Shown here: positions 12,387 to 59,526 of the stretch, piece after piece
How the letters are laid out: each line of letters begins with the position of its first letter
How positions within the stretch are numbered: the stretch's first letter is position 1
NCBI GenBank assembly: GCA_973895155.1
Contig: OZ316897.1
Span: 19,230,168 to 19,294,167, forward strand
DNA length: 64,000 nucleotides
From: Marsupella aquatica
Taxonomy: Eukaryota > Plantae > Marchantiophyta
Direction: 5' to 3'
Made by a program: the position numbers and the translations under genes
The notes under the pieces: generated by a model
What the model saw: the letters and a program-made list of their open reading frames with translations, nothing else
What the model was told of the DNA's origin: nothing
The model's database searches: none

Positions 12387-13340
12387 TCAAGCTGGCTGGC
12401 TTGTGTGGGATACAGGACGTTCTTTGCGGAGACGAGGTCGTGGCTTCAGGGGCGCAAAATGAAGTGCCTGCAAAGACACCATCTGCTGCAGAACAGAGAG
12501 CAGAGTCTGCTCAATAAGAATGCCATCAGGCTCCAACATTCCCAGGGCTCGAGCTATGGCTTCCATCGTGCTGACACAGCCAGCGAACGGTTCCTTTCTG
12601 ATGATCGAGCTCGAATCCCCCAGTCCCCAGCCCTCCCTCGTGATGTCGTGTGGAAAACACACCTGCTCCACAAACTCGCTCAGGAACGGCATGCTGGCCT
12701 TCACCATCTCTCTCGCGTGCTGCCATGTTCCGTCCACAATCAGTAAAACGATGTGCCCTGACTCCGCATCGCTGCTGCACACGCCCTTGAACCCCGAGCC
12801 TAATTGTCCAGAGTGCTTCCCAATCACTTCCTCTTCTTCACCGTCAGATCGGCCCACGAATTTCCCACCCGCCTTTCTTCCAAGGCAATCATCTGACTGC
12901 CGAATCTCGGCATCATTCTCCACGCATTGTGACATCCAAGTGCTTAGCTCAGTGGCGAAAGGCGTCGGGAAGAGGAGAAGCACCGATTTCCTGCGTCCGC
13001 ATGATCTGCATTGCCAACCGCAGGCGTCAACGGGAGGAGCAGAGTCTCCTTCTGCGGGGTTCAAAGATGCAGAAGAAGAAGGAGAGGAGGAAGAAGGCAA
13101 GGAGGGACGACTGAGCACATCGAGGAGCCGGGAGCTTCCGTGCTGGAGTCGACGGCCGACTATCACATCGACGTAGGAGAGGCAACGAGCGACGACTGGC
13201 ACTGTGGCGAGCTTCTGGCGAGTCTCATGCGGGTGCTGAAGGATGATGACTTTGGTGGCGGTCCGAATCGGCTGCGGAGGAAGCTGTGCGCACAGACACA
13301 CACGCAACGGCCGATTGCACGACGAGCACGTAGGTCTCAT
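12387..13340 (-). CDS. DTWD2: DTW-domain tRNA-uridine aminocarboxypropyltransferase (DTWD2/TapT-like)
   Basis: Single ORF with zinc knuckle CSSCNRPLRVCLC, IILQHPHE, LLLFP, LLIVDGTWQHA (DxTW) and IRKEP...CVSTMEAIARAL. The first in-frame ATG is at 13340; the track start at 13451 is a TTG. Confidence 0.92.
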   Translation of the reverse strand: MRPTCSSCNRPLRVCLCAQLPPQPIRTATKVIILQHPHETRQKLATVPVVARCLSYVDVIVGRRLQHGSSRLLDVLSRPSLPSSSSPSSSASLNPAEGDSAPPVDACGWQCRSCGRRKSVLLLFPTPFATELSTWMSQCVENDAEIRQSDDCLGRKAGGKFVGRSDGEEEEVIGKHSGQLGSGFKGVCSSDAESGHIVLLIVDGTWQHAREMVKASMPFLSEFVEQVCFPHDITREGWGLGDSSSIIRKEPFAGCVSTMEAIARALGMLEPDGILIEQTLLSVLQQMVSLQALHFAPLKPRPRLRKERPVSHTSQPA

Positions 13341-13379
13341 CGCCCGTCCTGCTCTCTGTACATCCAACAAATTTTGAAA

Positions 13380-13615
13380 CCAATTCTCTGAATGAGGCCT
13401 CTGGAGATCAAGCCTGTTACTGAACCTCTGCGAGTCAATTGCCACAGTCAATTATCCGAATGAAGCCACGAAAGAAATTCTCTGGGAATCAAGTCCGTTC
13501 ATGAAGCTCGGCGCATCAATTGCCCACAGCCAATTATCTGAATCAAGCCACGGAAGAAATTATCGGCGAATCGAGCCCGCCCGTGACTGAAGCTCTGTGC
13601 ATCAATTGCCACATT
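13380..13615. repeat. degenerate ~70-80 bp tandem repeat (about 3 copies) upstream of the DTW gene
   Basis: CAATT(A/C)TC(T/C)GAAT(G/C)A(A/G)GCC...GAA(C/G)CTC...CAATTGCC(C)ACA repeated three times. Confidence 0.65.
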
Positions 13616-19283: not shown

Positions 19284-19427
19284 AGTTCTTATTGTTAGTA
19301 TATACTTGAATAAAATTGTCAGTGATGAAAGCTTAATACATCTCACCTCAGTCTTAGCCAGTTGATGCTATCAACTAGTACAGTCTAAGTTTGGTGTGAG
19401 CTACCCTAGGACTAAGATTGATTTTGG

Positions 19428-29853: not shown

Positions 29854-30031
29854 TGTTGTAACCCAAGGTTAGGTCAACATCCAACCCTAGTTAAGGGATT
29901 GAGGTAGTTACTATAACTACCACTACATGTATACCTAGGGAGGTATTAGTAAACCCCCTATGAATGGATGAACCTTAATTGTTGGTGTAATTAACATTTT
30001 ATCTCCTAAGAATTCTCTCCACCTCTCAACA
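29854..30031 (+). repeat. 5' LTR of the outer element
   Basis: TGTTGTAACCCAAGG...CTCTCAACA; about 5 substitutions versus the 3' copy by eye. Confidence 0.9.
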
Positions 30032-37700: not shown

Positions 37701-38134
37701 TTACTTATATTTCTTTGTCTATCTCATTAACATGGAGAGGAAAACTCTTTGGCGTTGTAGGGCACTTCCCCATGTTTTTTAAAGTTTTGGCTAATGCATG
37801 ATAATGCCTTGCGAGAGCCCGGGCATCTGAAAGGTATAACATTTTCTCATGCATTTCTAGTCATTGCTGTAAATATGGAGGGTTATAATCTATCATCCTT
37901 TTTTTCTGGTTCACCATAAGGCATGGCTTAATTCATTGTATATTGGCAGATTTTCCCCTCCTTCCAGATTTGGTTCATGAAATTTGAGCCACAAGATCCG
38001 TCAAGGCATTGCTAAGCCCGGGTCTCATAAAGGTATTTTTCTGTCAATTCTTTTTAATATGTTTAGGTAGGGATTATCAATGATGGTTTTGGTGAAGTTT
38101 TTACTAATCGCCTTCCAATTGCTATACTTGTCAG

Positions 38135-39296
38135 ATGTCTTCATCCTCTACAACTTCCACCACATCAGATTCCTCTTCCAATGAAGAAAGTCATCCTCCT
38201 CCTCAACCTGAACCAACCGTACGTCGACCTAGTGGTCCACCACGCCAACTTTGTGGTTGTAAAAAATGTATGGGGATGGTTGTCCAAAAGTCATATGTAT
38301 GTGCGGAGCACATTGCTCGATATGGCCAACATCGAGGTCTTACACCGGGAGCTTCTTCATCCCGTATGGTGAGTTGTAAACTTACTGTGATTTCCATTTT
38401 ATTTTGTAAATCTTGCTAGGTAGCATAAAATAAAATTTGGGAGGTTCATCACACTCACTTGGTTCCATTTCTTCCTATAGGTATCCAGTAGGCCTACACC
38501 CACTACACCAACACCCTATGTTCCCTCACAAGGAGTTCTAGATGCTATAGGCTCGGCACTTTCACAAGCTTTTCGTTTAGTGGCAGCAGGGCAAGGTAGT
38601 GTTGGGACAATTAAGGGTGACGGTATTGTTACAAGAGGGAAAAAAAAGTCAAAAAGACAGCCTAGAGGGGAAGTGGATCAGTACACTTGTAGGGTTGATG
38701 GTAGATGGGGCCCTTGTACCTTCACAAGGAAGTGTGTTCCTATCATAAAGGATTGGAATCCGGAGTGCCTTGGTTTGCCATGTGATATAACCTATGGTGA
38801 GGAGATAGAAGTTTGGGGAAGACGTTGGGTTGTCAAGAGTTCGACCCTAGGGGAGAGGCATGGGTATGGGATTTTCTCTTGTCAGGACATTATTGTGGAT
38901 GATATGGGTGGAAAAGGGCGCTCTTCAGATGGACCAACGTTGTTCCCGTATGGTGGACCCATTTACAAGAGGAGACATTGGAACATGATCCTTGTTCAAC
39001 ACCCTGAGTGGAAGACTTATGCATTGGACATGGATACTTTTGATGGTTGCACCAGAAAGTATTGTGACCAGCGTATAATTGATGGTGATCCCATCCGTAG
39101 TGGGAATATTGCCGGTTTCATCAACAGTACTGTGGGGACCCGGCCTAAGCGTAGGAAAAACTGTGAATGGGTTTTTGTTGATGGTCCCCCTCCAGCCCCT
39201 TATGGGCAGAGATATCATCATGACCATTGTCTAGTTGTAGCTAATAGGACCATTCTGGTTGGAGAGGAGTTGTTTACACATTATGAATGGGATTAG
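38135..39296 (+). CDS. transposase-associated Cys/His module fused to a SET domain (predicted 349-aa splice product)
   Basis: Exon 38135-38368 (QLCGCKKC...CAEHIARYG; donor GTGAGT, phase 0) plus exon 38481-39296 (acceptor TTCCTATAG, phase 0, no stops). SET motifs: VKSSTLGERHGYGIFSCQDI, YGGPIY, YALDM, IIDGD...GNIAGFINS, NCEWV, VVANRTILVGEELFTHY. Confidence 0.85.
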
Positions 39297-39446
39297 GATT
39301 ACTTTAGGAACATGTATTATACGTTCATCGTATGTGAACGTATGTTTTGTAATGACATGTTCTTTTTATATTGTTAATAATATGTTTCGAGCACTACTAT
39401 ATTTGGCGTTAATTTCATTGTGAATACTTTATTGTATTTTCTATAG

Positions 39447-42400
39447 AATGTGCGGCCTAGTCAAGATATGTTGCCAAGGAGGTTGAGAGCTACATATCAA
39501 GAAATGGGCTTGCCACAAGACGGGGAAACATCATCAGCAGATTCCTCATCAAGTGACAATGATAATGACAGTCCAGATGAAGGGGCACCTCGGACAGATT
39601 ATGAGGTCATGCAAGACCAAGAGTCAGCCATGGATGACTTCATGACAGATTGGTTTGGTGTAGACATTGGTGGTGAAGGAGGTGTCCCACCCAATGAAGG
39701 AGACCCTCCACCAAATGTTGCACATGATCCAAGGCCTCAACGTACACCTGAAGGACAAAAACAATGGGAAGAAGCTGAGGCACATGCTAGAACACCTATT
39801 TATGGGGGTGCTCGTTTGAATAGACTATCTGCCATCTTGGCATTGATGAATCTTCATGCAAAACACAAGGCAAGCAATACGCTACTATCGGATTTGTTTG
39901 CAATTTGCCATGATCTCTTGTTACCTAGTGAAAATCTGTTGCCAGGAACTTGGAAGGAGGCAAAGAGGGTTCTATCATCCATTGGCATGGAATACCATAT
40001 CATTCATGCTTGTGTGAATGACTGCATTCTCTATCATGAGACCAATGCCAGCGCAACTGAGTGTCCAATTTGTCAAGAGCCTCGATATGAAACCAACATG
40101 TTGACCTCAAAGGTGCCTAGAAAAGCTGTTCGTTGGTTTCCTATTATTCCTCGATTGTTGCACATGTACCGATGTTCTGACTTGGCAGAATTGATGGTAT
40201 GGCATAAGACACATCGATTAGAGGCCGGTGTCATGCGGTTGCCAGTTGATTCCCCTGCTCACAAGCATGTGGAGTCACAATGGCCAGAATTTGCACGTGA
40301 CCCTCGTCATGTGAGGTTGGGGTTGGCATCAGATGGGGTAAGCCCACACTCCCTTGGAGGGAAAGGGCGCCCTACTTCGGTTTGGCCGGTGGTTGTTATG
40401 AATTACAACCTTCCCCCATGGTTGTCCATGAAAAAGGGATTCTTATTGCTATCATTGATTATCCCAGGTCCATCTAAGGTAAAAAACATGGACACCTACT
40501 TGGCGCTCTTGGTTGGGGAACTCCATAAATTATGGGGGGGTGTATGGGCATATGATGGTCGGACAACTATAGGAGGGTTACCACGTGTCTTCCAATTGAA
40601 GGGAATCATTATGTGGACCATGCATGACTATCCAGGTGAGTGGTATGGATTTGTATTTTTTTCATGTATTGGAGATCAAGTTTGTTTGGAAGGAAGTCCC
40701 TCTTTAATTCTATGTACATGAACTTTTCAATTCCTTTGACTCTAATTGAGAATGTTATTTTGTGAGCAGGGTTTGGGTTTGTTTCTGGGTTCCAAACTCA
40801 AGGGTACAAGGCATGCTCCACTTGTGGTCCAAGCCTTCACGATATGGCCAAGTACTCAAAATGGCTGCACAAGATAATCTACCTTGGTCATACCAAGTTT
40901 CTTCCACTTGGGCATCACATGAGGTCTGACCCCCTTTTGTTTTCAGACTTTGACATGATCAATGGTGATGAGCGTGAGATACCTGACCGCACAACATTTT
41001 CGTATTGGAAATCCATAGCTGATAGGGTGGCAGACCCTGAAGATGCCATGGGATTTGATGGTAGTGGATTGACAAGGTGGGGTATACTGGCCACTTTGCC
41101 CTATTGGCCTGAGTTGAAGATTCATCACTTGTTAGACCCCATGCATATAGAGGGAAATGTTGGGAAGGCTTTGATCAAGCACTTAATTTTATGGGGAAAA
41201 GAACATTAATTTTAGGGAGGCATGCCAGGATCTAGAACGACATCCAGATGTATGGATAACAGTTGATGAATCCACAGGGATGGAACATCGTCCTTCAGCT
41301 CCATGGGTTTTGAGTGTTGGTGAAAGAAGAGAGTTTCGACAACGCATAGGGCAGATCATGCGGTTTCCTACAGGCTATGGTGCCAATCTACGTAAGGCTT
41401 TTGGGATGGAGGACAGTCATAAATGGCCAATGTATCTCAAGACACATGACTATCATCGTTTACTACAACATATACTTCCTGTGGCAATCATAGGTTTGGG
41501 GAGTGAAGAAGTGCAAGACGCCCTTTGGTCACTAGGCACTTTGTTGAGATGGATATGCTCAAAGGAAATATATGAAGAAGAGATACCACGGATGGAGGTA
41601 TTGGCAGCAGAGGTGGTATGCAAGTTGGAGAAGGCCCTCCCTCCTTCCTTCTTTGATTGTCAGATGCATCTTCTCGTTCATCTTGTGAGGGAGGTTGCCA
41701 TTGCCGGTCCGGTGCATTGTAGGTGGATGTATTGGCTGGAAAGGTATATGGCCGTGTTAAAGGCTTATGTACGGAACCGTGCACGAGTGGAGGGGAGCAT
41801 GGCAACTGGATACTTGGCAGCTGAGAGTATGTTTTATTGTAGTAACATCTTAGCTACCATTGATCCTAGTTTTCCACGCACTTGGATGGAAGAGAGGGAA
41901 GTGGAGGAGGACCGTTTAACAAGTGCAAAAAAAACACGCTTACTAACCGCAGTGGAGTTGACACAGGTTAGTACTTTCATGTTGAGTAACAGCAATGTGA
42001 TGGAAGATTGGAGAGAGTTTTATGAGGATGCAAAGAGGGAGAGTCGTCGCCCAAGGATCTTTCCAAAGTTCCTTGAGTATATGAAGGAGAAAGTACTTCA
42101 GTTGGATGCTATGGTGGCCCAAGGTGAGAATGTATCACATTTTCCAGATATGACTCCTGAGGTTCGAACAATTGTTCATGGTCCTTTAAGACTTGTTCAA
42201 ACCAGAACAGCAATGTGGACACAAGGGAGGCATTTCAGGATTTCTGACCTTGATGAGAAGAGGGGAAGAACTTTTGATTGTGGAGTTCAAGGGCAGTTCA
42301 TGCAAGATTCACAAAGTAGCCGTCATGACACTAATGTGATCAGAGATGTGGTGCCTCACTATGGGAAGATTGAGGAGATCTTGATCATATCCTATGATGC

Positions 42401-42722
42401 CGATTCCAAATTTGAAGAGTATGTCTTCAAGTGTAAGTGGTTCAAAATTCACCTGGTTGGTGATAATCGCACGGTACTTCTTGATGAGTGTGGGTTTACT
42501 CGACTGAAGACATCAGCAACTAGCTTTCAACCATCTCATTGGCAAACATCTGAACCATTTACATTCCCAAGTCACCTTGAGCAGTGTTTCTATATTCCGT
42601 ACCCACCAGACCTAGAGTGGTCAGTTGTTATACCGTATGTGCCACGGTCCCGTTCCATTATCTCGGAAAAACCTGACGTTATTATTGTGTCAAATGGAGG
42701 CGAGGATGAGGACCAGGTTTGA
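39447..42722 (+). pseudogene. CACTA TnpD transposase core (Transposase_21, DUF4218 and DUF4216-type regions), one frameshift
   Basis: IHACVNDCILY, CPICQEPRY, FPIIPRL, LGLASDGVSP, YNLPPWL, LIIPGP, TMHDYP|intron 40636-40769|GFGFVSG, LDPMHIEGNV, KTHDYHRLLQ, HLLVHL, GPVHCRWMY..ER, YGKIEEI, FKCKWF. A net +1 frameshift (probably a 4-bp insertion) near 41186-41190. The acceptor at 39446/39447 is in phase with exon 38135-38368. Confidence 0.95.
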
Positions 42723-43465: not shown

Positions 43466-45808
43466 AAGTCAGGCCTAGTACAAGTCATCAAATACATCAG
43501 ACTGCCTACTGCCTTCTCATAAGGAATCTTAGCCATCAGACCTTTCTCCACAGCATCCGTAGGAGAGAAAGCCGATGATAACTTGAAATGTGAAGCTAAA
43601 GGAATACTCACTGGCTTATAGTTCTCCATGTTGAATCGTGCAAGTACTTTCTTCGCATACTGGCCTTGACTCAAGCACAACTGTCCAGTCTCAGAGTTCC
43701 TAAAAATCTCCATCCCTAAGATTCTCTTGGCCTTACCAAGATCCTTCATCTTGAATTCAGCACTCAATTTCAGAATGTCAACCTTAGATTGATCTTTAGC
43801 CACAATCAACATGTCATCCACATAGATAACCAGAATGATGAAACCAAATACATCATTCTTGACTGATTTTGTATACACACAAGGATCATACATCATCCTT
43901 GTAAAACCTTAAGCAAGCATGAAATCATCAAACCGCTTGTTTCACTGTCTGGGAGACTGCTTCAATCCATACAAGGACTTGAGCAATCTGCAAACTAAGT
44001 TCTCTTGGCCCTTCTTCATAAAGCCTAGTGGCTGTCTCATGAAGATCAGCTCTTCCAAGTTGCCATAGAGAAAAGCAGTAACAACATCCATCTGATCCAT
44101 CACCAGACCAAAAAACACAACAAGCTGACACAAGATCCGAATTGTGGAATACTTAGCAACCGGTGAAAAGACCTCATTGTAATCCACTCCTTTGTCCTGA
44201 GTGAATCCCTTGGCAACAAGCCTTGCCTTGTAGATCTTGTCTCCACCCTCTGAAGGACTATCCTTCAACTTGTAAATCCACTTGCTGTCTACCACTTGCT
44301 GACCTCTTGGAAGCTCCACCAGTTCCCATGTTTTGTTGTCACTCAAAGATTACAACTCCCTTTGCATTGCTGCATTCCACTCATGCTTCTGCTCTGAAGC
44401 ACAAGCCTCACTATACGAAGAAGGCTCTCCTTCTTCCAAGATCAAAGCCATATCATCTTCATCAGGTGCAATGTCAATATCATCTAGCTTACTTAGATGA
44501 GTCTGCCCATTGACCATACCTGGTAGGAGCTCTAGTAGAACGACTGGAAGTTCTTCTAGTAGATGACTCAGGCTGATCTATTGCTGCTGCTGGTTGAATT
44601 TGAGGTACCCTAGCAACAATCTGCTCCTCTTGTTCCATCACAGGAACCAGCTCCAAGCCCGGAGCTTCTCCATCTCTCCTATCATGAACTGCATCATGAC
44701 TAATCTCCCCCTCAACCCGGTCCGGGATGGGAGATTTCCCCTTGTCAGTATGGGAGTCCTGAGAACTCTCCCCCTCCTTTGATGATCTGGATTCATTAAA
44801 GGACACATCTCTACTGACAATTAGCTTACAGCTTACTGGATCCCATAACCTATAACCCTTCACACCTTTCTGATAACCAAGGAAAATGCACTTCTTCGAC
44901 TTGGACTCCAGCTTGGATCGAAGCTGGGAAGGTGTAAGCACATAAGCATCACATCCAAAAATCCTCACATGTGAGTAATCTGCTGGACGCCCGTACCTCA
45001 TTTCAAATGGCGTCTTGAATCCAATAGAACTAGATGGAGAAAAATTTACCAAATAAGCTGCAGTGTTGACAGCTTCAGCCCAAAACTCATGTGGTAAGCA
45101 TGATTGACTCAACATACTCCTCGAGCGGTCCAATAGTGTTCGGTTGAGTCTCTCAGAAACACCATTCTGCTGAGGAGTATAACTTGTTGTGAGATGGCGG
45201 GTAATCCCCTACTTCTTACAATACGTTCCAAATTCCGCGGAACTGTATTCACCGCCGTTATCCGATTGAAGATATCTCACCTTATTACCAGTCTGATTCT
45301 CAACTTGGGCTTTCCACTCCTTAAAAGTGGCAAAAACATCAGACTTATTGTGTAGAAAGTATATCCACACATACCTTGAGTAATCGTCTATGAACATGAC
45401 ATAGTATAACCGTCCAGAATGTGAGGGAGTAGGGGCTGGACCCCACACATCACTATGTACATACTCAAGTACCTCCTTGCTGGTGTGAGTTCCAACTCCG
45501 AAGGGTTTCCTGTGCTACTTCCCTAGCACACAGTGCTCACAAAATTCCAACTTACAAGATTGCAAATTAGAAAGTAATCCTTTCTTCTGAAGAATAACCA
45601 AACCTTTTTCACTCATGTGGCCCAAACAGAAGTGCCACAGCCAGGCCGTCTCCTCATGAGATAAGGTTACATTGGCTTCATCACAAACTACACTGCCCTC
45701 CAAAATGTATAGATTGCTATGTCTCTTTCCCTTCAATACAACTTTAGTACCAGTTGAAACCTGAAGGACACCATTAGCAGAGCTCCACTGATGGCCATTT
45801 GCTTCTAA
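43466..45808 (-). pseudogene. copia GAG-pre-integrase, integrase and RT remnant
   Basis: WHFCLGHMSEKG...CEHCVLGK, FIDDYSRYVW, SDNGGEY, YKARLVAKGFTQ, IYVDDML; several stops and frameshifts. Confidence 0.93.
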
Positions 45809-46139
45809 CACTAGTACATATTAAGCTGATTTCCGATGCTCAATTTTTGCAAACAATCGGCGTCCGATTCTTTTAGCATCGGAAATTCCGATTATCAAAA
45901 AATGGCAATATGCCATACTCTCGACTTCGGATATCTTCATTTCCGATATAATTGACAACGAAACCTTTCCGATGCGTTAAAAAACGGATCATATCCGTTA
46001 GAAAACACATCGGATCCCTCAACAGAAACTTTGATTGATATGTCCGATGTTTTTTGTAACGAAAATGATGTGCGTTACAATATTGATCGGAAACTTTCCG
46101 TAGTTAATAATAACGGATATTATATCCGATTGTGCTAAC

Positions 46140-46295
46140 ATGGCAAAGTCCGATGCTGGGAGTATGGGAAAGTCCGATGCTAGAAGAATGGGAAAGTCCG
46201 ATGCTGGAAGAATGGGAAAGTCCGATGCTGGGAGTATGGGAAAGTCCGATGCTAGAAGAATGGGAAAGTCCGATGCTGGGAGTATGGGAAAGTCT
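46140..46295 (+). repeat. 24-bp subterminal tandem array ATGGGAAAGTCCGATGCT(GGGAGT/AGAAGA)
   Basis: About 6-7 consecutive copies; inverted counterpart at about 47145-47290. Confidence 0.93.
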
Positions 46296-47144
46296 GGTTA
46301 TGACAAAAAGAAAATTTTTGATTGTGTTAGAATGAAAAGTTTTGATGTGTTAGATGGGGTATGTGGTTGCACTGACATACTCTTCCCAAAAGATGCAATC
46401 ATTCTTGCATGCATGAATAACTTCATACTTGAGGCAAATGGACTTGAGTGTTATTTTTGCCTCATTCCAAGACCCAGCATATTGTTCCCTTACGGAAATA
46501 TGTGCTCAACATGCCAAGTCCAAAATACATCATCTAGAAGGAGGTTGCTTGTCCCATGTAGTCTTTGTTGCAAGTCCAACAACAACATAGTTGATAAAAG
46601 ATGAGACAATCAGGAGCCATTGACGCTGAGGCTTTGGAAGGACCAAAATATCATCCATAACTAATAAGCCATAATTATCCCATATCAAATCTAATGAAGG
46701 AGGGCTTTACTATCCATGAATGACCCCTGCCAGATTTCTATTGGTTTCTCCTAGGGGAATGTAATAGGGTAACTAGAATAGGTCACTTGATGCAAAGATC
46801 TAATCTCATGATAGAGAAAAATGGATCAAGAATGGGTCCAAATTATGGGTCTTAGTAAACTCACAAGTGTATAAAATCCCCAAACACTCTAAGTCAAACA
46901 ACAAAAGTGCTAAGCTTGCATGTACAATGTAAGGAATAAGAACCACAAAGTTAAGCTCATGTTGGAGGAATAGCAATTGGGATGGGTGACCAATTAGTTG
47001 AGAAAATTTGAAGAGTTCACATGTCAAGGGAGATGGGCACCTAGCTCATAGTTCCAAATGAAAGTAGAAACCCAATTAAAGGAAGAGATGGGTGACCTGA
47101 GCATGTCGCGTCCGCTGAAATGCATATCCCATTTTGATTGCTTT

Positions 47145-47290
47145 GGACTTTCCCATTCTCCTAGCATCGGACTTTCCCATTCTCTCACCATCGGACTTTC
47201 CCATTCTCCTAGCATCGGACTTTCCCATTCTCCCACCATCGAACTTTCCCATTCTCCCTTCCCATTCTCCCACCATCGGACTTTCCGATA
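47145..47290 (-). repeat. inverted copy of the 24-bp subterminal array
   Basis: CATCGGACTTTCCCATTCTC repeated about 5 times. Confidence 0.9.
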
Positions 47291-47432
47291 GAAGTCTGAT
47301 TGTCGATATCCGATACTATTAAAATGGCATGTTGCGATGCTAGTAGTATCGGATATATGGTTTTTCAAATTTTATTTTACAAAGGCGTCCGATGTGGAGA
47401 GAATCGGAAAAAGGAGGTAAAATGTACTAGTA

Positions 47433-48770
47433 TAAAACTCCAAGTGAAATGAGATTTTTCATCATGCTGGGAATATGTCTCACATTCCTCAACGTTCTCA
47501 CAACACCATCAAACATCTGAAATCTTACAGATCCAAGTCCAACAACTTGACATGGGATTCCATTTCCCATCAACACTGACCCATTGGAAACCGTGTAAGA
47601 ACAGAAACAATTTCTCCTAGAGCAAATGTGAAAAGTACATGCACTATCTAGAATCCAGTCATCACTACCTGGATTTGACACTACGTTGAGAGCATAATCT
47701 TGACATCACAATATGTCATCATCATCGAGTAAATCTACCTCATGCGAGCTCGATGTCGCATTAGCAGAGGCAGTAGGGACCTTTACTCGACAATCCCTTT
47801 TCATGTGGCCAGGCTTGCCACAATTCCAACATGCAAGAGGCTTCCTCTCTTGCGATTTCCCTCTGGATTTAGATCTCCCCCGTGATGTAGATCTAAACCT
47901 GTTCTGCCCATTCGTGCGCTGCGCTGCTCTTCCCCTGTTCACATTGAGCGCAGTGCCAGAAGAAGATGTTGTGTGTGATTGACCCAACTTCTTCTGAGCA
48001 TCATTAGATAACAAAGAGCTCACCACCTCATTATACAAAATGAACTTCAGATCTCTGTACAAGAGCACTTGTTTCAAGCCCTGATATGACGGCGGTAAGG
48101 AGCTTAGCAGAAGCAAGGCCTTATCCTCATCTTCAACTCCTTTTCCCAGGTTTGACAGATCCACTGCTAGACTGTCAAATTCATCCAGGTGATCCTGCAT
48201 CTTGCTCCCTTCCTTGAGCCTGAGGCTCATCAAGAGAGACTTCTTGTACAACCGGTTTGACGCATCTTCCCGGTAGTACTTCGGTCTAAGAGCCTTCAAC
48301 AGTGACGCACAATCCGCATAATCATCCAGTTGCTTGATGATGTGCGGCTTGAGATATAGCATCACTGCATTGACAGCAATCACCTGCTCCTGTCTCCACT
48401 GTCTCAGAAAAATCTTCTCCTCCCCATCATACTGCTCTCGCGATGAAAGCAGATGAGCTAAGCCCATGGCCCGCAGAATACCCTTCACTTGCTTCTCCCA
48501 CAGCAAGTAATCAGTACGACCATCGTACTTCTCCACCTCAAACTTTACTCCTCCGAATCTAGCCATCTCCCTCTTCTTCCCTACTACCGACAGCTCTGGT
48601 AGTAACACAGCTTCCTCCACTGCACGCCGCACCGGTGATCGTACCGGTGTCACTAGTTCTTCCTCAAACGGTAGCAGCTCCTCCTCAGACTCTCCGTCTG
48701 ACCGTCGCGATCCTGAAGCTCCACCGACGCCAATTCTTCCAGTATCCTCCGAGTCACTCATATGAAACAA
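47433..48770 (-). pseudogene. copia gag (with zinc knuckle) and protease
   Basis: KFEVEKYDGRTDYLLW, EDEDKALLLLSSLPPSY, CCHC knuckle CWNCGKPGHMKRDC, protease WILDSACTFHI; in-frame stop at 47706 between gag and protease. Confidence 0.92.
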
Positions 48771-50266: not shown

Positions 50267-50608
50267 TGTTGAGCATAGACGACATTTGTAACGGCAAGCC
50301 CATGAACCATCCAACGCACAATAGTCGACACAGAGAGATACGTGGTTCACCTCCACATGAGGCTACGTCCACGGGAACACAAGAGCTTTACTGCACTCTA
50401 GGCCGACCGGCCATACCAAGCATCCACAGCACAAGCTCTCCCTATCTCTCAACTAGCTCCGTAACAATGAGCCTAAGTTCCACCAGGGTCTGGCATCAGC
50501 CCTGGCTATATACACAACAGCACTACCGCTAACATTAGCTAAGTCCTAACCCGAGTTAGCCTAACTGTGGTTAGCACAAGAGTCACAAGACTAGAGCAAT
50601 ATCTAACA
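50267..50608 (-). repeat. 5' LTR of the nested copia
   Basis: Adjacent to the PBS; matches 32433-32769. Confidence 0.96.
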
Positions 50609-51510
50609 ATAAGATCTATATATATAAGGTATTTAGACATGACTTAAATTTTGGAATTCCAAGAATGGGTGAAGAATGCGCATACAAATGAGAATTTGAG
50701 ATTTGAGGGGGAGAAAAGTACACCCTCCTCATATGCATCCATTGGATTGTTTGAGCTCCATTTTACAAATGATATCAAATGAGGAAGTGCCTTTAGCACA
50801 TGCTATGAAATGAAGTGCACAAGTGCTGTGAGCACATGAAATAAGTACTCATGATGGCCAATCATGAAAAGTACTTCATAAAAACAAATAAGATAAATGG
50901 AGGAAGAGAAATTTCCTTGAGATTTGCAAAGCCATTGATGGAAGTGTGTGAAAACCCCTAACACCACCATGGCTTTGCCCCTACTACTTATGAACATGAG
51001 ATGTATATATGTTGGCCAACTATTTATATCACATGAAAAAAAAATGATTTCCACATATATGGATCCAAAGGACAACCGAAGGCAATGGAATACCACAAAA
51101 ATGATAGAAGACTAACGTATGCATGTTGGTTGCAGAAAATACACATATGATTATAAACACCGTGAAGGAAGAATATGGGACCAATCAGAAATGAAAAACC
51201 AAGATTCAAGTTTCTTCACACTTCAAACCTCAAGCTTCACCTGGAACAAGAGTTCATATGTAACTTACTCCCAATAGGGGACCAATATATTTAAGACCAA
51301 ATTTTAGATGATCCATATTTTCACCCACTTTGAAACATATCCAAAATGACTATAAATGTAACATTGGTGGTGGCACTCTTTCCCTTAGAAGAAAGCAGAA
51401 GGGTTTTGATGAGACCACACCAATGGATACCATGTACTACATAGATATAACACTTATTATTAGATGTTAACCCTGGTTGCATTATCTATGATAAAACAAC
51501 CAAAGGGGAG

Positions 51511-51870
51511 TGTTGTAACCCAAGGTTAGGTCAACATCCAACCCTAGTTAAGGGATTGAGGTAATTACTATAACTACCATTACATGTATACTTAGGGAGG
51601 TATTAGTAAACCCCCTATGAATGGATGAACCTTGATTGTTGGTGTAATTAACATTTTCTCTCCTAAGAATTCTCTCCACCGCCCCATACTAGAGGCATGA
51701 CTTTGTGGTAGCTCACTTGAGTAGAGACTGATAGGTCTTGGGTTCAACCGTTAGGGCTGACTCTTCCCAACTATTGTGGCTGACTCTTCCCTTTCTGTGG
51801 AGTTTCACAGATTTCCCCTTAAAAAAAAATTATAAAAAAATAAAAATAAAACTCTCTCTACCTCTCAACA
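51511..51870 (+). repeat. 3' LTR of the outer element, interrupted by a SINE
   Basis: 51511-51680 plus 51863-51870 reconstitute the 178-bp LTR; preceded by a PPT. Confidence 0.88.
51681..51849 (+). mobile_element. tRNA-derived SINE
   Basis: Absent from the 5' LTR; A-box-like TAGCTCACTTGA (51709-51720), B-box-like GGTTCAACCG (51741-51750), A-rich tail, imperfect ~13-bp TSD AATTCTCTCCACC / AACTCTCTCTACC. Confidence 0.75.
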
Positions 51871-52064: not shown

Positions 52065-53683
52065 CAAAATATCCTTGCCTTGGTTTGATCAGAGTTCCTG
52101 AATGGAATTGCTCTTGCTCCTTGCTGGTGGCTAATTTTTTAAAAATTAAAATTGGCCTTTGCAAAATCAGCTGAAAATTATTTTAAAAGCCAGCATAAAA
52201 CAGGGGGCCACCAAAGGGCAGCACCTTGGGGGACCAAAGGTAGAGGTGCCCCAAACTGGAGAGGCCTGCACCAAGAGAGCAAGACTAAAGGCAACCAAAC
52301 AAACAATTTAACTACTACAAAAGGAGGAGTGGCTCACCCCCTACGACTGATCACTCCCTAGACTAGTCAGTGAAGCCAACAATCAATTTAACTTTACAAA
52401 AGGAGTGGCACACTCCCTAATACTAGTCAGTGAAAGGAAGCGCCTGGGAAACCTTCCCTTTAATCCATGACAGGTGTTTAAATTCTATCCATCAGGTCTA
52501 TGGTGCAGTTTCCACTCCTGAGACACAGTTCAGGGTGGACGAGGAAGGACTGGTGCAACGTGACCGTCGTTGTGAATTTACCTTGAGCCCAGTTGCCATA
52601 ATGAAAGGACATGTGGTTGAAAGCCTCCCTAAAACTGGACTTGCCCATCCTGATTATGAGATCTATATGATCTATGTTTGGCCGAATCCTTACGAAGGTG
52701 AATCCCTAGACTAATCTGTGGCTAATCAACATTTCAGAGCAGCTTTTACAAGAAGACCTGGAGAGAATTTGACCGAATGCAATGGCGTGCTGTATCCTGG
52801 TGATACGACTGGCCTCTGACTTTGACTTTGGCTTCCTTCAGCACAGTCATGCGAAATTCCCAGTAATTGCGATGGAGACGCTACTTTTCTGTCGACGCGT
52901 GTTAGCGTATGGCCTCAACATAATATTCCGGAGAGTCCTGTCATCTCCGGAACAGACCTCAAGTGGTTTGGAGGGGAGAGTCGACGAAGTTGCTGAAAAT
53001 TGCGGTGGAAACACTACATTTCTGTCGCGTACTGCTGTATAGCCTCAACAGGATCAAATCCGAAGAGTGCAGTGATCAGCGCACCGGACCTACAGGAGTT
53101 TGGTAGCGGAAAGTCCATGCTAAAGCAAAAGTGCAGGGAGCACAGGCACAATCACGACGTCCATTGCTCTATTTTCAACAAACAAAAGCTACTAAGTTTA
53201 GTTGATATTCCTGGTCGTCCTTCGAGATTTGGGACGTGGTCCTGCAATATGGCGGGGTCATGGCACAGCGATGAACCGTGATCTAGAATAGCTTGAACCG
53301 TGATCTCGAATAGCTTCTCGCTGAAGATTATCTTCCGTAGACTGTACGGTGTAAGTGAGAGTCTATGTTACGTGGACTTATCGACGCTGCAAACTTATCG
53401 AGGAAGCCTGGTGACTTAGTCAAACTCCGAGAATCATATAAAGATCGAGTTACACTCTCGGCGAGAATCAATCTATTCCACCGTGCCTAAATTGCATCCT
53501 GACATAGCGGGAGTAAGCAAGCTCAGATTAGTCCTTTGGATGTCCCAGTCACGCAACTCTCTCGTACGTGTTCGTTGAATGTTCATCTTCTTTGGGCAGT
53601 TGTCATATCAAGTACTCCTGTCTTCCAAAATCAATTGCGTTGCGGGTTAAGATTACTCCAGCTGTGGCGATTAACGGATAAAA

Positions 53684-56600
53684 ATGGAGGAACAGGAGAT
53701 CTACGACCTTCTGATTGTCACGGATGCGACATCCTCGATGACCGAGTACTTAGAATCCCTGCACACTTCTCTGCCTCAAATTATTTCCATCTCTGCGCTT
53801 ACAGGGTGTTTTTCTCACATCGGGCTTCTTGCCTATCGCGACTATTGCGACGAGACCTTGCTGGAATGGTCCGGGTGGCTGGAGCAATCAAGTGTCGTGC
53901 AAGACCAACCGGATCTTGTCGCCAAAGCCAAGTCAATTGCGCCACAGGGTGGTGGTGACTATCCAGAAGCTACGAAGACGGCACTGGCCAAGGCATATGA
54001 AGTTATGAGGCCCGAGGCTACGACGATTCTTTTGTTCTACACCGATGCTTCTCCTCATGCAGCATTCAATGGGTCCAATGGGTCCCCTCCCTGGGGGTGG
54101 TGTGAACTATCATCGAATCATGCACAAGAGAAGGAAGCCCTCTCGGACCCGAAGTCATATGGCGGCTTTGGGCCAAGCTTTATCGATTGGGTCTCCGCCT
54201 GTAAGACCCTGAGGAGCGGAGAAAAGAAAGTGCAAGTTTTTTGCATGCTCGAGTCATCAATGCCATGGCAGTACGCCGGGCATTACAATTACCTGTGTAC
54301 CCTGAGCCGCGGATCATGCATCATCCTGAAAGACTCGAAACCGGCGACTGTTTCTAAGGTGACAGTCGAGGTATTATTAGCATGGATGGGAGTAGAAAAG
54401 GCAGGTACATCTGATGCTACCAACTGTACAGAGCTGCCAGCAACTCTGTGCCGGTACCTCGACATTGGAAACATCCAGAAGATAAAGGATGAGGATGATC
54501 CAATTGCTAATCGGTTCTTCTCAACAACCTCTTCTAATGGAAGCACTGCGACTAAGAGCATTTCCGCAAACATTGCGAGTGTTGCTATTACACCAGAAGT
54601 CCTGAAAAAGCATTTGCCAAAAAAGAGAACACCAGTCTCCGACTTTGGCAAATCCTACACAAGTGATGCAGCTTATCGGGTCATCGTAGTTGAGCATCTT
54701 AAGAAGATCATTGACAGCGACGTCCGTGCCATAGCTGTGAATCCTGTCTTCGGCAGTGTTTGGAGGGCTGCTTGCAATGACAGGACCCGCGAGTCACACA
54801 ACGACCTCATCTCAGCATTTGGGCTTCAGGTCGAGAGGATAAGCAATCCAGACGACAAAGCACAAATGAAAGCTTGGCTTGAGGAGTCATACAATTATAC
54901 GGCGGAAGTCAGAGACAAGCTCAATGCGGTGCCCGAAAACGAACGATTCCCTTGTGTCTGTCTGGATCCTACCCTCAACTTCGTGCGCTCGGGCGACGAT
55001 ATGCCCAATGGGGATGAGGATAACAGGCCAATCACCGCATTCCGAAGAGACGAGCTGCTGGAGATAGGCCGATCTTGCGACTTCAAAATCCTTCGACGCT
55101 TGGGTCGCGTCCTTACTAGATTAACATATATCGAAAGTCCTGAAGACATCCCCGAGCACATTGCAGGAACAACTGACGACGAAATTCCCAAGATTCCGAT
55201 GGCTCTGGCATCCAAGAAACATGGAGGTCAATTCTGGAGAATATTGTTGCACGTCATCGTTCCAGGAACAATGCTGTCGGCTCGACCTGCAGCTCTCCTG
55301 GCGGCTTTGAGTCTGCGACTTGGTGTGGAACCTCTCACTCAAGCAGCAGAACGCGAGATGTTTAGGTGGCGTAATAGGTGGAATGACGTTGAAGTGCCTG
55401 AAATTTGGAGTGTCAGTAGCTTGTCTCTTCTCTTGGATGCAGATAAAGTGTACCGCCAAAGGCAGCAGGATCTCGGCACTACTAATGCGGATGGAGATGC
55501 ACAACAGAAGCATTTCAGTTTGCTAAAAGAAGCTGACAGGTATTTGTTTGAGCATCTTGTCACCTACAAAATGCTGGAGCTAAATCTCGATACGACTTTG
55601 ACTGCGCAATTAGGATGGACACCAGACAAGACAATTGTTCCGATCGGTCCTTTAGCTTTCTGTCGATCTTGTCAATACCCACGGTCCGTGACTATCATGG
55701 GTCCCAGTAGGAAATGTGGTCTCTGTCTTTACACAACCTATGAATCTCCGGAAGTCCGGGAGAAGTTCATAGAAAGCTGCGTCTCGAAGGAAGATGGCGA
55801 GCTGACTCCAGCGACATGGGTGGAATGTTCGGTCATAACTTGCCGAGCTCAGTATGTGGTCTACAATCGCAAGGCGCTGAATGTCCGCCCAAAATGCCAC
55901 TACTGTCGTTCACAATGCAGTATGCCAGCAGCAGAGAGAAGCAAGTATGCAGCACCTTGGGTCGAATGCACAGTGTGTCTGAACCGCATGATTTGGCCAG
56001 AAACATATCGGTCTTCCTCTTTCTCCAAATCCGCTTTCACATGTCCACCATGTACATCAGGCCGCACAACCATTGTCGAACTCGAGACAACTGCCAAGAA
56101 GATATCTGCAGAGAACACGACATCATGGCTTATCCTTGACTCCGAAAAACCGGACGAATGTCCATTCACGAACCGTTCAGTCTACCACACCATCTCTACA
56201 ATCGGTTCGGATTCCTTTCTCCGAAGGATAAGTCTGTTTCCTCCAGCCAAGCATCCGCTGACTGTCAAGGGAAAGCTCATCCGTAACTCAATTTCGCTGA
56301 TATCAAACCTCCATGATATTATCTCCCGACGGGAAACTGAACGTGCCCCCTGCTCGTTGTGCTTCTCAATCTTCCATCCGACAGCCCTCAGTGCTGCTTG
56401 CGGCCGCCGCGGCTGTCTCCAACGCATCTGCCGCAGCTGTCTATCGGGATGGTATGGCCTCAATTCCGTAGGTCGCATTATCAACACCGCTGCTCTGTCG
56501 TGTCCATTTTGTCGACGCAAGCCTGCAGGGCGCAGGCTGGCCAAGTACGGGATGGGGATCCATGCCGTCGGGAACTTGGCTGTGGCAGTGCAAGACCAGG

Positions 56601-57076
56601 GCCGCTGGATCTACGCATGGTGCCACGACTGCGGCTGCGCGAAACGGTACATTGAGCGAGTTTGTGCTCGCGGCATACCGGCGGAAGTGCAAGGGTGGAC
56701 CTGCGACGATTGTCGTGAGGAGGGCGAGCGTCTGCGCATTGCTGCCGAAAGGCAGCGGGTGGAGCTCGTTTTGAGAGATGCGCGGATTGCGAGGAATATG
56801 CAAGCAATTGAGGAGGCAGAGGCAGTGGAGGAAGCGCTGAGGATTGCGGGGCAGGAGAGGACGCTGAAGAGGAGTAAACCATGCCCTGGGTGTCGCACGC
56901 TAACCGAGAAGATTAGTGGGTGTGATCACATTTCGTGCCCCGTGAAGGATTGTGGCACGCACTGGTGTTATTCCTGTGGTCAGGGGTTGTCTGAAACGAA
57001 GATTTATCAGCACTTGCAGGAACGGCATGGGGGGTACTATGGTGATTTTGATGACAATGTGCCTGATCAACATTAG
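53684..57076 (+). CDS. intronless vWA-domain, multi-zinc-finger, RBR-type (RING/IBR-like/Rcat) E3 ubiquitin ligase-like protein, 1130 aa
   Basis: vWA with MIDAS-like DLLIVTDATSSM, AYRDY, GGGDYPEA, YTDASPH; many CxxC pairs; RING-like CSLC...CGRRGC...CRSC...CPFC; C-terminal KPCPGC..TEKISGCDHISC...CGTHWCYSC matching RBR RING2/Rcat with the catalytic Cys. TATAAA at 53437-53442. Confidence 0.9.
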   Translation: MEEQEIYDLLIVTDATSSMTEYLESLHTSLPQIISISALTGCFSHIGLLAYRDYCDETLLEWSGWLEQSSVVQDQPDLVAKAKSIAPQGGGDYPEATKTALAKAYEVMRPEATTILLFYTDASPHAAFNGSNGSPPWGWCELSSNHAQEKEALSDPKSYGGFGPSFIDWVSACKTLRSGEKKVQVFCMLESSMPWQYAGHYNYLCTLSRGSCIILKDSKPATVSKVTVEVLLAWMGVEKAGTSDATNCTELPATLCRYLDIGNIQKIKDEDDPIANRFFSTTSSNGSTATKSISANIASVAITPEVLKKHLPKKRTPVSDFGKSYTSDAAYRVIVVEHLKKIIDSDVRAIAVNPVFGSVWRAACNDRTRESHNDLISAFGLQVERISNPDDKAQMKAWLEESYNYTAEVRDKLNAVPENERFPCVCLDPTLNFVRSGDDMPNGDEDNRPITAFRRDELLEIGRSCDFKILRRLGRVLTRLTYIESPEDIPEHIAGTTDDEIPKIPMALASKKHGGQFWRILLHVIVPGTMLSARPAALLAALSLRLGVEPLTQAAEREMFRWRNRWNDVEVPEIWSVSSLSLLLDADKVYRQRQQDLGTTNADGDAQQKHFSLLKEADRYLFEHLVTYKMLELNLDTTLTAQLGWTPDKTIVPIGPLAFCRSCQYPRSVTIMGPSRKCGLCLYTTYESPEVREKFIESCVSKEDGELTPATWVECSVITCRAQYVVYNRKALNVRPKCHYCRSQCSMPAAERSKYAAPWVECTVCLNRMIWPETYRSSSFSKSAFTCPPCTSGRTTIVELETTAKKISAENTTSWLILDSEKPDECPFTNRSVYHTISTIGSDSFLRRISLFPPAKHPLTVKGKLIRNSISLISNLHDIISRRETERAPCSLCFSIFHPTALSAACGRRGCLQRICRSCLSGWYGLNSVGRIINTAALSCPFCRRKPAGRRLAKYGMGIHAVGNLAVAVQDQGRWIYAWCHDCGCAKRYIERVCARGIPAEVQGWTCDDCREEGERLRIAAERQRVELVLRDARIARNMQAIEEAEAVEEALRIAGQERTLKRSKPCPGCRTLTEKISGCDHISCPVKDCGTHWCYSCGQGLSETKIYQHLQERHGGYYGDFDDNVPDQH

Positions 57077-57499
57077 TCCGACGACGACGAATAGCACAGA
57101 GTGTAGGCGCAGTACATATTCAATCTCATGTTTTCTTCGAGATTTCTGAGTCCGAGAAAGGAACGAAGAAGACGAACAAATGAGGCAAAGGAAAGACGAA
57201 GAGTACTGTCATGGTAACTTGATTGAACGCAATGGCTCAAAAGCAGACAAACAGAGCTCAATTGAATTGGTTACACTCTCACGTCTGGCGAATAATGCTC
57301 AGCTTTTATTTGCCACTGAAAGCTCAGCCGCAATTTATAGATTTTGGATCGATCACGCCACGAGACCACGGTGTTATTCTTCATCTATGCTGAGCGTCTT
57401 GCAGGATTCCGTCGATGTGAGAAATCTTCGAAAGGATCCATGGCATCGCTAGCATACGCTACGAGCATAGACCAATTCATGGCATCGATTTAAATGCAG

Positions 57500-58160
57500 A
57501 GCAGGACTGAATGCGATTCATTTGGATGCAATGCGGTGCAACTACTTCACAATGCCGGAAACAGGAATCCGACTGCACATTGGACGGAAACTCTTGCTCC
57601 TTCCCTGCCTTGCATGAACGCTCCCCGCTGCACAAACCTCCCAGCTCCTCATCAACAGAAACGCCGTGATGTAATCGTTCCGCGATATATAAGAAAACTT
57701 GCATAGAAAAACTCTTCATGAAATTACTTACGGAGAGAGACTTACGCTATGGTTTGGTCCGATCATGAAGGAATCTGAGTTTCACGAAGTCTGCAATGAT
57801 GTGCGACGACGGCCCAATCCAGGAAACAGGAGTTCAATTGCACATAGGACCGGAAATCTTGCTTCTCGCCTGCCCAGCCTTCTGTCCACAAACAGCGCAT
57901 CAACGCCTCCCGCTGCACAAACCTCCCAGCTCAGCATCAGCGAGAAACGCCGTGATTTAAGCGTTCCTCGATGCATAAAAAGTTTGCAGAGGAAGCTCTG
58001 CATCAACGTCTCCCGCTGCATAAATCTCCTACCTCCATATCAACGAGAAACGTCGTGATCCGAGCGTTCTTCCACAGAGAAAAGTTTGCATAGGAAAGCT
58101 CTTCCTGAAATGATGTATTGAGAAAGAGTTACTATGGGGTTGGTAGGATCATGAAAGAAT
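57500..58160. repeat. degenerate modular direct repeats downstream of the vWA-RBR gene
   Basis: AACG..CCCGCTGCA(C/T)AAA(C/T)CTCC...CATCA(A/G)C..GAAACG(C/T)CGTGAT...TTGCA three times (about 57617, 57902, 58005); the GGAAACAGGA...TGCACAT.GGAC module twice. Confidence 0.8.
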
Positions 58161-59526
58161 CGAGTCTGCTACCCAACTACTACGAGCCCGAATGTTCATT
58201 CTGTCAATATATGAGTTCCCCTCCTTTCTCTTCATTGGGCTCCTTTGCCATTGGCATCATGTCTCCAGGCCATTGGCATCATGTCTCCAGGTTATCGTTT
58301 TTTGCTCTTTGGCTGTGTTAAATGATTTGTACACGCATACATCCCATCCTTCTTTCCCTAGAGTCTTCACTCTAAAAGACTACAACCCAACTCTAGTTTC
58401 TGTATATAGCAGCCTCAAAATATACTCTACAGTAGTTTCTGTACTATTTATTAGTAAGATTATGTGCCCTGCAAATTCAGATTTTTTTCCAGGACGGACA
58501 ATGGGCACAAAAACAGATGGATGGGTGTGGGTTCTGTACACTGGTGCCATCGGAATTCGCTTAACATATAGGATATTATAAAAATTCTGGACCCCTGAAA
58601 CCTGATATATTGGAGTGGGTTCTACACTAGTGTCATCAGAGTTTGCTTAAAATAATATCAAAATTCTGGACCCGACTAACAAGATATTTCTAGAATAACA
58701 ACTCTAAGTGGGCCTAGTACTCGAATTCAGACTCTACTGGGTCTCAGAAATATCTTGTTAGTTGGGTGCAACTCTACTTCACTTACTACACTATTTGTGG
58801 ACGATTAGCTCTTCACATTATGGAGGTAAGTCTTTTACTCTTTTCTAGGTTTTTGTGATTTTGCCTTTGCACATTTCTTTCTAATTTAGTGCTTGTGTAC
58901 CTCTTTTGCATTTTCTTCAGTGTACTTTGTTTGGCCCGTTCTGGTAAATAAACTTAGAGTGTTACTTCTGAAACTTGATTCTGGAACCTCACTTGCCGCA
59001 TTGAAGACAGTTACGGCTGCAAACTCTGCAATTATCTGAATCTGTTCATGGTAGGTACTGTCGTATCCTAAAATCACTCACCTTCATGTCTTCACATTCT
59101 GTACATACATGATAGGCAGCGCGCTGTACCAGGGCACCATTGAATGATGGGACCCAATAAGCAACAATAAATAAGTTACCGAGGAATGTTATCCAGAAGA
59201 TCTCAGGTGGTCCCAACTCCAAACACTTTCAACCTTTGGCTCCTTCTTTAATTAAGGTATTGGCATTTATTGGATTTCATTTGAGCGTATCTTTGGGGTT
59301 GAGTCTATCTTTAGCGTAAGTGATTATTTTTTGTCCAGCTACTGTAGCTACTATGTAGATTTCTCATGCTGTTTGTCCCTTATTTTCTCCCCTTTATTGT
59401 GGGTATCTTGGGTTTGGGATCTTGTCCCAGGGTTTGGAGCTTTTGGTTCATTGCTAGGGTAGTTTGATGTTCTCTTTCTCTTTTTGGTGGGTCTCTTGCC
59501 TTTGGGATCGTGTCTCAACCTTGGAA

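Follow-up and report, generated by a model that had tools for sequence, protein, structure and literature searches.

In a 64,000-nucleotide stretch of the genome of the liverwort Marsupella aquatica (contig OZ316897.1, positions 19,230,168 to 19,294,167; hereafter the window), we characterized an intact single-exon gene encoding a protein of 1130 residues that joins an N-terminal vWA domain to a C-terminal module of the RBR ubiquitin-ligase type. The reading that best accounts for the data, to which we give a probability of about 0.75, is that the gene was taken up once from an ascomycete before the host lineage split from Calypogeia, has been maintained by purifying selection, and encodes a predicted RBR-type ubiquitin ligase. 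Within this reading, transfer from a fungus to a plant is highly probable. Current expression in the host is predicted to be likely, as is RBR-type catalysis, whereas a role against microbes is doubtful. The initial annotation of the window had already proposed a fungal gene transferred to a plant, and this proposal is borne out by the ascomycete matches and trees described below, with four refinements: the host belongs to the leafy liverworts; the transfer appears to be old and common to the host and Calypogeia; the family also has members in Basidiomycota, in giant viruses and in a blastoclad fungus; and the protein is an atypical RBR ligase that lacks a canonical IBR.

A protein search with the window protein returned 417 matches. 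Among the best 120 of these, 45 bear an organism name, comprising 44 ascomycetes and the liverwort Calypogeia fissa, which ranks first. BLASTP identities to the window protein are 76–77% for C. fissa, a second copy of which belongs to the same cluster, 65–74% for organism-unlabelled proteins, and 48–57% for named ascomycetes. The searched collection does contain Marchantia, Riccia, moss and seed-plant proteins, yet the best 120 matches include none from Marchantia, Riccia, mosses or vascular plants; orthologues throughout the green plants, an outcome raised by the initial annotation, are therefore not seen within that set.

Phylogenetic trees, built from subsets that kept the closest sequences along with named representatives (63 rows; 23 rows, LG+G4; 31 rows, LG+C20), place the window protein and the two Calypogeia proteins in one clade (support 100, 100/100 and 100/100, respectively). 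This clade is joined to metagenome proteins amid named ascomycetes (support 99, 98/98 and 84/97), and an approximately unbiased (AU) test rejects placement of the liverworts outside the ascomycete-type rows (p 0.002; LG+G4, 23 rows). Furthermore, 29 residues are common to the three liverwort rows and absent from the 9 nearest others, compared with 0–13 for any such row together with a single liverwort. The homologue at one metagenome locus, L006, has the same sequence as P0130, matches the window protein at 72% identity, and is adjoined by a GH76 gene whose named matches are all ascomycetes. The GH76 gene was tried as a guide to the donor and resolved no class, its best match overall being 51%. 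Hyaloscypha hepaticicola, a known symbiont, was rejected as donor, as its copy is 54% identical and falls in a separate clade. The donor, judged from these sequences, probably belonged to an ascomycete lineage that no named genome represents in the searched collection.

The gene is linked to a marker of the host genome. Specifically, a DTW-domain gene lies 40 kb upstream of the ligase gene, and over 244 ungapped columns its protein has identities of 84% and 83% with a pair of C. fissa proteins, 57–64% with Marchantia and Riccia proteins, and 49–52% with moss proteins. The gene is thus of liverwort type, in keeping with a host that is a leafy liverwort other than C. fissa. The C. fissa assembly is PacBio-based and contains 38,150 genes and a recent genome duplication, according to the available text of its preprint (bioRxiv 10.1101/2025.04.01.646537). 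In it, ligase CAM6111704.1 and DTW protein CAM6111712.1 are encoded on a 9,255,348-bp contig, 8 accession numbers apart, and ligase CAM6108547.1 and DTW protein CAM6108537.1 on a 10,680,267-bp contig, 10 accession numbers apart. By hand calculation, a given pair among the 38,150 genes would fall within 10 accession numbers about 5 times in 10,000 by chance, a figure that assumes that accession order equals gene order and that applies to two scaffolds that are not independent, owing to the recent duplication. Because the linkage to the DTW gene is shared with Calypogeia, the data point to one old transfer, which likely predates the split of the host lineage from Calypogeia. If Marchantiopsida lack the gene, the transfer likely postdates their divergence, dated to 293.7 million years ago in the same preprint text.

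Host repeats reach to within about 2 kb upstream of a CpG-retaining island that surrounds the gene. Co-transferred fungal DNA was sought by tblastn of the flanks (49–53.7 kb and 57.1–64 kb), with no match in 22 metagenome loci, and was rejected; compared with L006, the flanks score no better than shuffled sequence (shuffles scoring as high, 61 of 100 upstream and 28 of 100 downstream). Degenerate direct repeats, with periods of ~103, 265–285, 386 and 130 nt, occur at both island edges (57527–58161 and 52852–53050), and have no match in the fungal loci.

Base composition and the single exon had been pointed out by the initial annotation, and neither serves as a sign of transfer. The described contrast between the open reading frame (ORF) and its surroundings is real (GC 0.513 and CpG observed/expected 0.85, versus 0.431 and 0.52 for the window minus 52400–58300), and to call the flanks AT-rich is an overstatement, the 1-kb bins adjoining the gene having 38–47% GC. 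The contrast was rejected as a sign of transfer since the host DTW gene has like values (GC 0.571, CpG observed/expected 0.85). The island is likely an unmethylated gene region, as over the DTW gene, rather than foreign DNA. Likewise, the lack of introns was rejected as a sign of retroposition: each of the 14 near-full-length metagenome loci examined, out of 22 fetched, has one ORF of more than 900 aa, which covers the match in 12 (L001 ends at a contig edge and L012 terminates at 922 aa). The intronless state of the liverwort gene is thus apparently inherited from fungi.

The TATA-like box and the ends of a possible intron in the 5′ untranslated region (UTR) are present as annotated. TATAAA and GTAAG occur 39 and 43 times in the window, and because they are so abundant the motifs alone are weak evidence. 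The upstream ATGs at 53540 and 53579, the two between the TATA-like box and the start codon, both lie within the candidate intron, whose removal would take out both, which is in favour of the intron.

Retention under selection is supported by the distribution of differences between the window protein and Calypogeia copy A, which rises from 7 of the 237 columns with a conservation of 95% or more among 119 non-plant rows, through 13 of 175, 34 of 189 and 65 of 196 in the middle bins, to 128 of 287 columns below 40%. Consistent with this, the comparison with fungal L006 gives dN 0.18, dS 1.21 and dN/dS 0.15, a ratio that mixes fungal and liverwort branches, with a proportion of synonymous differences (pS) of 0.60. 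All zinc ligands, the MIDAS residues and Cys1080/His1082 are intact in the window copy.

The encoded protein is predicted to consist of a vWA domain, a helical core, three zinc fingers and a catalytic module (Table 1). A structure prediction from a 74-sequence alignment is confident (pLDDT 90.0, pTM 0.75), an earlier fold from 12 sequences having reached a pLDDT of 37.7 only. The N-terminal domain is matched by Pfam VWA_4 (residues 9–126, E 4.7e-7) and, in Foldseek searches, by vWA and integrin beta-I domains and by the ArnB vWA domain, in line with the annotated MIDAS-type vWA. In particular, it carries the motif D14-A-T16-S-S18 (D14-x-T16-x-S18), in which Thr replaces the first Ser of the DxSxS MIDAS pattern, and further conserved residues D92, E95, T99, D121 and H125; counts in the alignment of 146 rows are 136 for D14, 136 for T16, 134 for S18 and 144 for D121. 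The model and motif together identify a vWA fold with a predicted MIDAS metal site. For the helical core, which spans about 400 residues, Pfam gives no match below E 0.2, and the listed Foldseek PDB matches are vWA-type or Sec23/24-type entries. The three zinc fingers have no Pfam match, and all 12 of their cysteines are kept in 119 of 119 non-plant rows.

The annotated RBR module stands at its C-terminal end, is weakly matched in its RING-like part, and does not contain a canonical IBR. Specifically, the Rcat is matched by Pfam IBR_2, an Rcat-type family (residues 1064–1099, E 6.8e-8), and its GCDH aligns with parkin GCMH (E 1.4e-8) and also with the ARIH1 Rcat. Of 146 rows, 141 have the predicted catalytic C1080 and 5 are gapped there, while 139 have H1082, a conservation that reaches down to about 28% identity; H1093 occupies the site of the parkin Glu. 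The last 20 residues are acidic family-wide (median D+E 0.35 versus a background of 0.12; 138 rows). The RING-like domain, C890 to C943, is of C4C4 type, with Cys where His is usual and eight conserved Cys in RING spacing; it is weakly matched by Pfam FANCL_C (E 0.0024) and zf-RING_2 (E 0.025), and by FANCL chain 3k1l among PDB profiles (profile A3, E 2e-4). Weak profile matches covering RING through Rcat are to HOIL-1 (E 0.04) and CUL9 (E 0.22).

Between the RING and Rcat, residues 880–1020 give no Pfam IBR match at E up to 1, and the IBR second-site pattern is found in just 7 of 146 rows. The position is taken by a ribbon of five cysteines. Four of these, arranged as two CxxC pairs, would occupy a single zinc site, and C994, present in 140 of 146 rows, would be left as an additional ligand or as a free thiol. 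His or Cys stands at position 960 in 101 of the 146 rows. The protein likely works in an RBR-like manner, as judged from its sequence, yet falls outside the canonical definition, which includes a two-zinc IBR.

By analogy with known RBR chemistry, the RING would bind a ubiquitin-charged conjugating enzyme (E2), and ubiquitin would pass to Cys1080 as a thioester and from there to the substrate. The domain order suggests that the five-cysteine ribbon and the long helix provide the hinge from RING to Rcat that the IBR would otherwise form. As a guess, the metal-dependent vWA site, together with the helical core and zinc fingers, may select the substrate or turn the enzyme on.

Table 1. Features of the window and HET-domain genes of related metagenome loci (locus coordinates where a locus is named)
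Feature	Position	Strand	Basis or detail
vWA/R811-like RBR-type E3 ligase coding sequence (predicted), fungal origin, single exon, 1130 aa	53684..57076	+	
TATAAAG, candidate TATA-like box	53437..53443	+	sequence only
Candidate 5′ UTR intron, 149 nt	53513..53661	+	sequence only; begins GTAAGC, finishes CTCCAG
CpG-retaining island surrounding the ligase gene	52500..58100	.	composition
vWA domain, ~residues 7–235	53702..54388	+	Pfam VWA_4, AlphaFold model, Foldseek, conservation
Mainly helical, family-specific core, ~residues 240–650	54401..55633	+	confident model
Three predicted zinc fingers	55661..56053	+	C660/663/678/681, C715/720/738/741, C762/765/787/790
RING-like domain, predicted E2-binding RING1	56351..56512	+	eight Cys: C890, 893, 906, 911, 916, 919, 940, 943
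Five-cysteine ribbon at the IBR position	56618..56713	+	W979-C980xxC983, C994 (codon 56663-56665), C1007xxC1010
Two-helix linker, ribbon to Rcat, 56 residues	56705..56872	+	median 19 across alignment A2
Rcat (RING2), then acidic tail	56873..57028	+	predicted catalytic Cys1080 (codon 56921-56923) and His1082
Host DTW-domain gene, synteny anchor common to C. fissa	12387..13451	-	
Host repeat upstream of the island	50267..50609	.	94–96% identical to copies at ~3.0–3.2, 31.1–31.3 and 32.4–32.8 kb
Host repeat upstream of the island	51511..51680	.	97% identical to 29854-30023
HET-domain genes, L007	5295-6968, 13600-15525		both sides
HET-domain genes, L008	161-1837, 9116-9811		both sides
HET-domain gene, L005	4517-6109		downstream

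The protein is, by sequence, a member of a wide, patchy and uncharacterised R811-like family found in ascomycetes, Basidiomycota, a blastoclad fungus and giant viruses. An unfiltered search retrieved 1351 representatives at E up to 0.001, and 4 of 10 distant representatives checked stand for clusters with an organism name, namely Auricularia, Mycena, Serendipita and Paraphysoderma. The Serendipita indica protein CAG7847763.1 bears the NCBI name 'Putative ariadne-like RING finger protein R811', R811 being a mimivirus gene; phmmer matches P0230, a protein whose cluster contains this one, at E 2e-136. Atlas clusters of similar proteins, with few records, have Basidiomycota, Nucleocytoviricota and Oomycota as their commonest known phyla. 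Foldseek over viral models gives whole-length matches to moumouvirus (E 1.6e-57), Yasminevirus and Megavirus proteins. CAG7847763.1 and the proteins of Megavirus courdo7 (H2ECJ9/H2ECK0), Borely moumouvirus (A0A6G6AAA4) and Yasminevirus (A0A5K0U8U4) have the same domain order as the window protein, and distant members share its conserved Cys, MIDAS and Rcat residues. The window protein differs from the rest of the family in residing in a land plant and in its longer helical linker, and structural alignments give it 19–24% identity to the viral members. Pattern scans, which reach close relatives only, found nothing with P0001 in metagenomes or with A1 in viral contigs and prokaryote genomes. The literature searched contains no paper on this gene or family, functional or otherwise. 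One distant member, P0331, has a UBA-like domain after the vWA domain (residues 253–286, E 3.4e-5), which fits a ubiquitin-pathway role of the family.

Several observations weigh against the transfer of a working ligase as we read it. The absence from other plants stands on the best 120 of 417 matches, and just one of the nearest organism-unlabelled proteins is shown to be fungal, so that others, such as P0008, could be bryophyte. Under the mixture model the AU test yields a borderline p of 0.045, the outgroup branches are long, and the branch uniting liverworts with the metagenome clade has a support of 84/97 in the 31-row tree. Vertical descent of an ancient eukaryotic gene with loss from most plants, or acquisition through a virus or other intermediate instead of straight from a fungus, would suit the wide and patchy family and a root placement that hinges on long branches. 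It is nonetheless highly unlikely, given 71–74% identity to one fungal clade, the closest metagenome clade, against 35–37% to basidiomycete members and far lower values for viral ones; in addition, synonymous sites are unsaturated relative to L006 and hard to reconcile with the age of the plant–fungus split. Fungal contamination or a chimeric assembly join could draw on the fungus-like composition of the segment and on the intracellular ascomycetes hosted by leafy liverworts (bioRxiv 10.1101/2025.04.01.646537, available text). The synteny is inferred from accession order and equal contig size rather than from coordinates. We consider contamination very unlikely, because the ligase–DTW linkage recurs in two liverwort assemblies, the second of them independent and showing it in two scaffolds; moreover, the liverwort copies are mutually closest and distant from that of H. 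hepaticicola, the flanks match none of the fungal loci, and host repeats approach the island.

The state and activity of the gene are further points of doubt. Among columns with a conservation of 95% or more, private changes number 6 in the window copy (S208, V223, V359, H372, S579 and R951) and 1 in Calypogeia copy A (two-sided binomial ~0.125, by hand), possibly a sign of relaxed selection in the window copy. A real and old transfer whose product is silent or beginning to decay in this genome would produce such an excess, and we hold it to be unlikely: the 3.4-kb frame has no stop or frameshift, the functional residues are intact, the locus has kept its CpG, like the DTW gene and unlike most flanking DNA, and end branches in the 31-row tree differ little in length (window 0.18, Calypogeia about 0.155). 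Alternatively, the protein may not be a working RBR ligase, either because the RING on its own does the work of a classical RING E3 or because the whole serves as a zinc-finger scaffold. The weak RING match, with its resemblance to FANCL-type RINGs and its Cys for the usual His, and the non-canonical IBR speak for this, as does the basic residue that follows the last RING Cys (R944; Lys in 48 of 60 distant rows), the linchpin position in classical RINGs. Set against these are Cys1080, found in every ungapped row, the nearly invariant His1082 and the weak profile matches to HOIL-1 and CUL9, and we see little probability in this alternative. A bolder extension would make the gene a fifth, IBR-less plant RBR-type lineage in which Cys994 relays ubiquitin from E2 to Cys1080 under the gate of a metal-dependent vWA sensor, a device shared by fungi, giant viruses and liverworts and turned by the liverwort to the control of intracellular fungi; we regard it as improbable. 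An intact gene from one old ascomycete uptake, encoding a predicted RBR-type ligase, remains the reading that we favour.

The genomic neighbourhood of the homologues gives a weak hint of defence. In a scan of 17 metagenome loci covering 54 of the 90 neighbour ORFs listed, with L006 treated apart, HET genes adjoin the homologue in 3 of the 17 loci (L005, L007 and L008), two of which, L007 and L008, are near-identical (pS 0.076). The remaining neighbours are mainly housekeeping genes with no conserved context, and a defence neighbourhood was rejected. The labels 'sensor' and 'defence-related' in the initial annotation thus find no support beyond this hint. An OTU1 deubiquitinase gene (L009:7543-8670) and a RING-H2 gene (L001:4171-4932) lie directly upstream of homologues, likely by chance.

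The rest of the window contains mobile elements and one lectin/kinase locus. Two broken Copia-type retrotransposons, with RVT_2, gag and integrase pieces, lie at 569–2672 (+) and 44489–48770 (-), and a CACTA-type element with Transposase_21, DUF4218 and DUF4216 at 38481–42722 (+). Ahead of the CACTA element lies an ORF of 271 aa that weakly matches the SET domain (E 3.3e-5), possibly a transposon-borne SET gene. At 16476–20909 (+), a legume-lectin ORF of 935 aa is followed by a partial kinase ORF of 495 aa, with long unmatched inserts; the lectin ORF has a CpG observed/expected of 0.20 and a GC content at third codon positions of 0.36. The locus has the look of a lectin receptor kinase that is methylated, rearranged or evolving fast. 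One 1-kb bin, 37001–38000, has a GC skew of 0.60 and an excess of T, and is probably a simple repeat.

Fungus-to-liverwort transfer is a known process, and the present well-supported case was not found in the literature searched. A survey of 49 streptophytes lists 1,809 transferred families, many of them fungal in liverworts (PMC12513842, available text). The fungus-to-bryophyte transfers described there (RDS1, YANB, EUPF, FB lectin, KP4 and microbial terpene synthases) likewise have a fungal donor and a liverwort recipient, and, as at the ligase locus, few or no introns and surroundings rich in long terminal repeat (LTR) elements. The examples named in that text are enzymes, lectins and stress or antimicrobial proteins, unlike a large E3 ligase. 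Long retention of a large regulatory E3 is less expected, as it must engage host E2s and find host or microbial substrates. The words 'ubiquitin' and 'Calypogeia' do not occur in the main text of the survey and one small supplement has no match, while its full list may include the family; 'horizontal', 'HGT' and 'ubiquitin' do not occur in the main text of the C. fissa preprint (bioRxiv 10.1101/2025.04.01.646537). With C. fissa available in axenic culture, a laboratory symbiosis and published RNA-seq, the liverwort gene offers a testable setting for a family of fungi and giant viruses.

The RBR ligases of plants fall into four subfamilies, Ariadne, ARA54, Helicase and Plant II, all older than the split of the green algae (PMC2904391, available text), and the term 'von Willebrand' does not occur in the main text of that source. 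In the window protein, Ariadne, RWD and helicase Pfam domains were not found, and a vWA domain is present instead. The ligase groups with ascomycete sequences and has other domains; by sequence it is placed outside the four subfamilies, in line with the initial annotation, which noted that plant RBR ligases are not described with an N-terminal vWA domain, and would add a lineage beyond them.

As for E3 ligases of other types, the window protein shares with RGLG and WAV3/EDA40 the joining of a vWA domain to an E3 module, and these plant vWA-RING ligases have a plain RING and no Rcat. Its second conserved cysteine near the RING can be likened to that of MYCBP2, a cysteine-relay ligase in which such a cysteine is the relay hallmark. 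RGLG, WAV3 and MYCBP2 did not turn up in the general homology, Foldseek and PDB-profile searches, which included no dedicated test for them. If its activity is as predicted, RBR-type catalysis is possible without a canonical IBR: the window protein has the same succession of a RING-like domain and an Rcat with catalytic Cys-x-His as the RBR ligases parkin and ARIH1, and differs from them in its lack of a canonical IBR, its eight-Cys RING, its N-terminal vWA domain, helical core and three extra zinc fingers, and its fungal origin.

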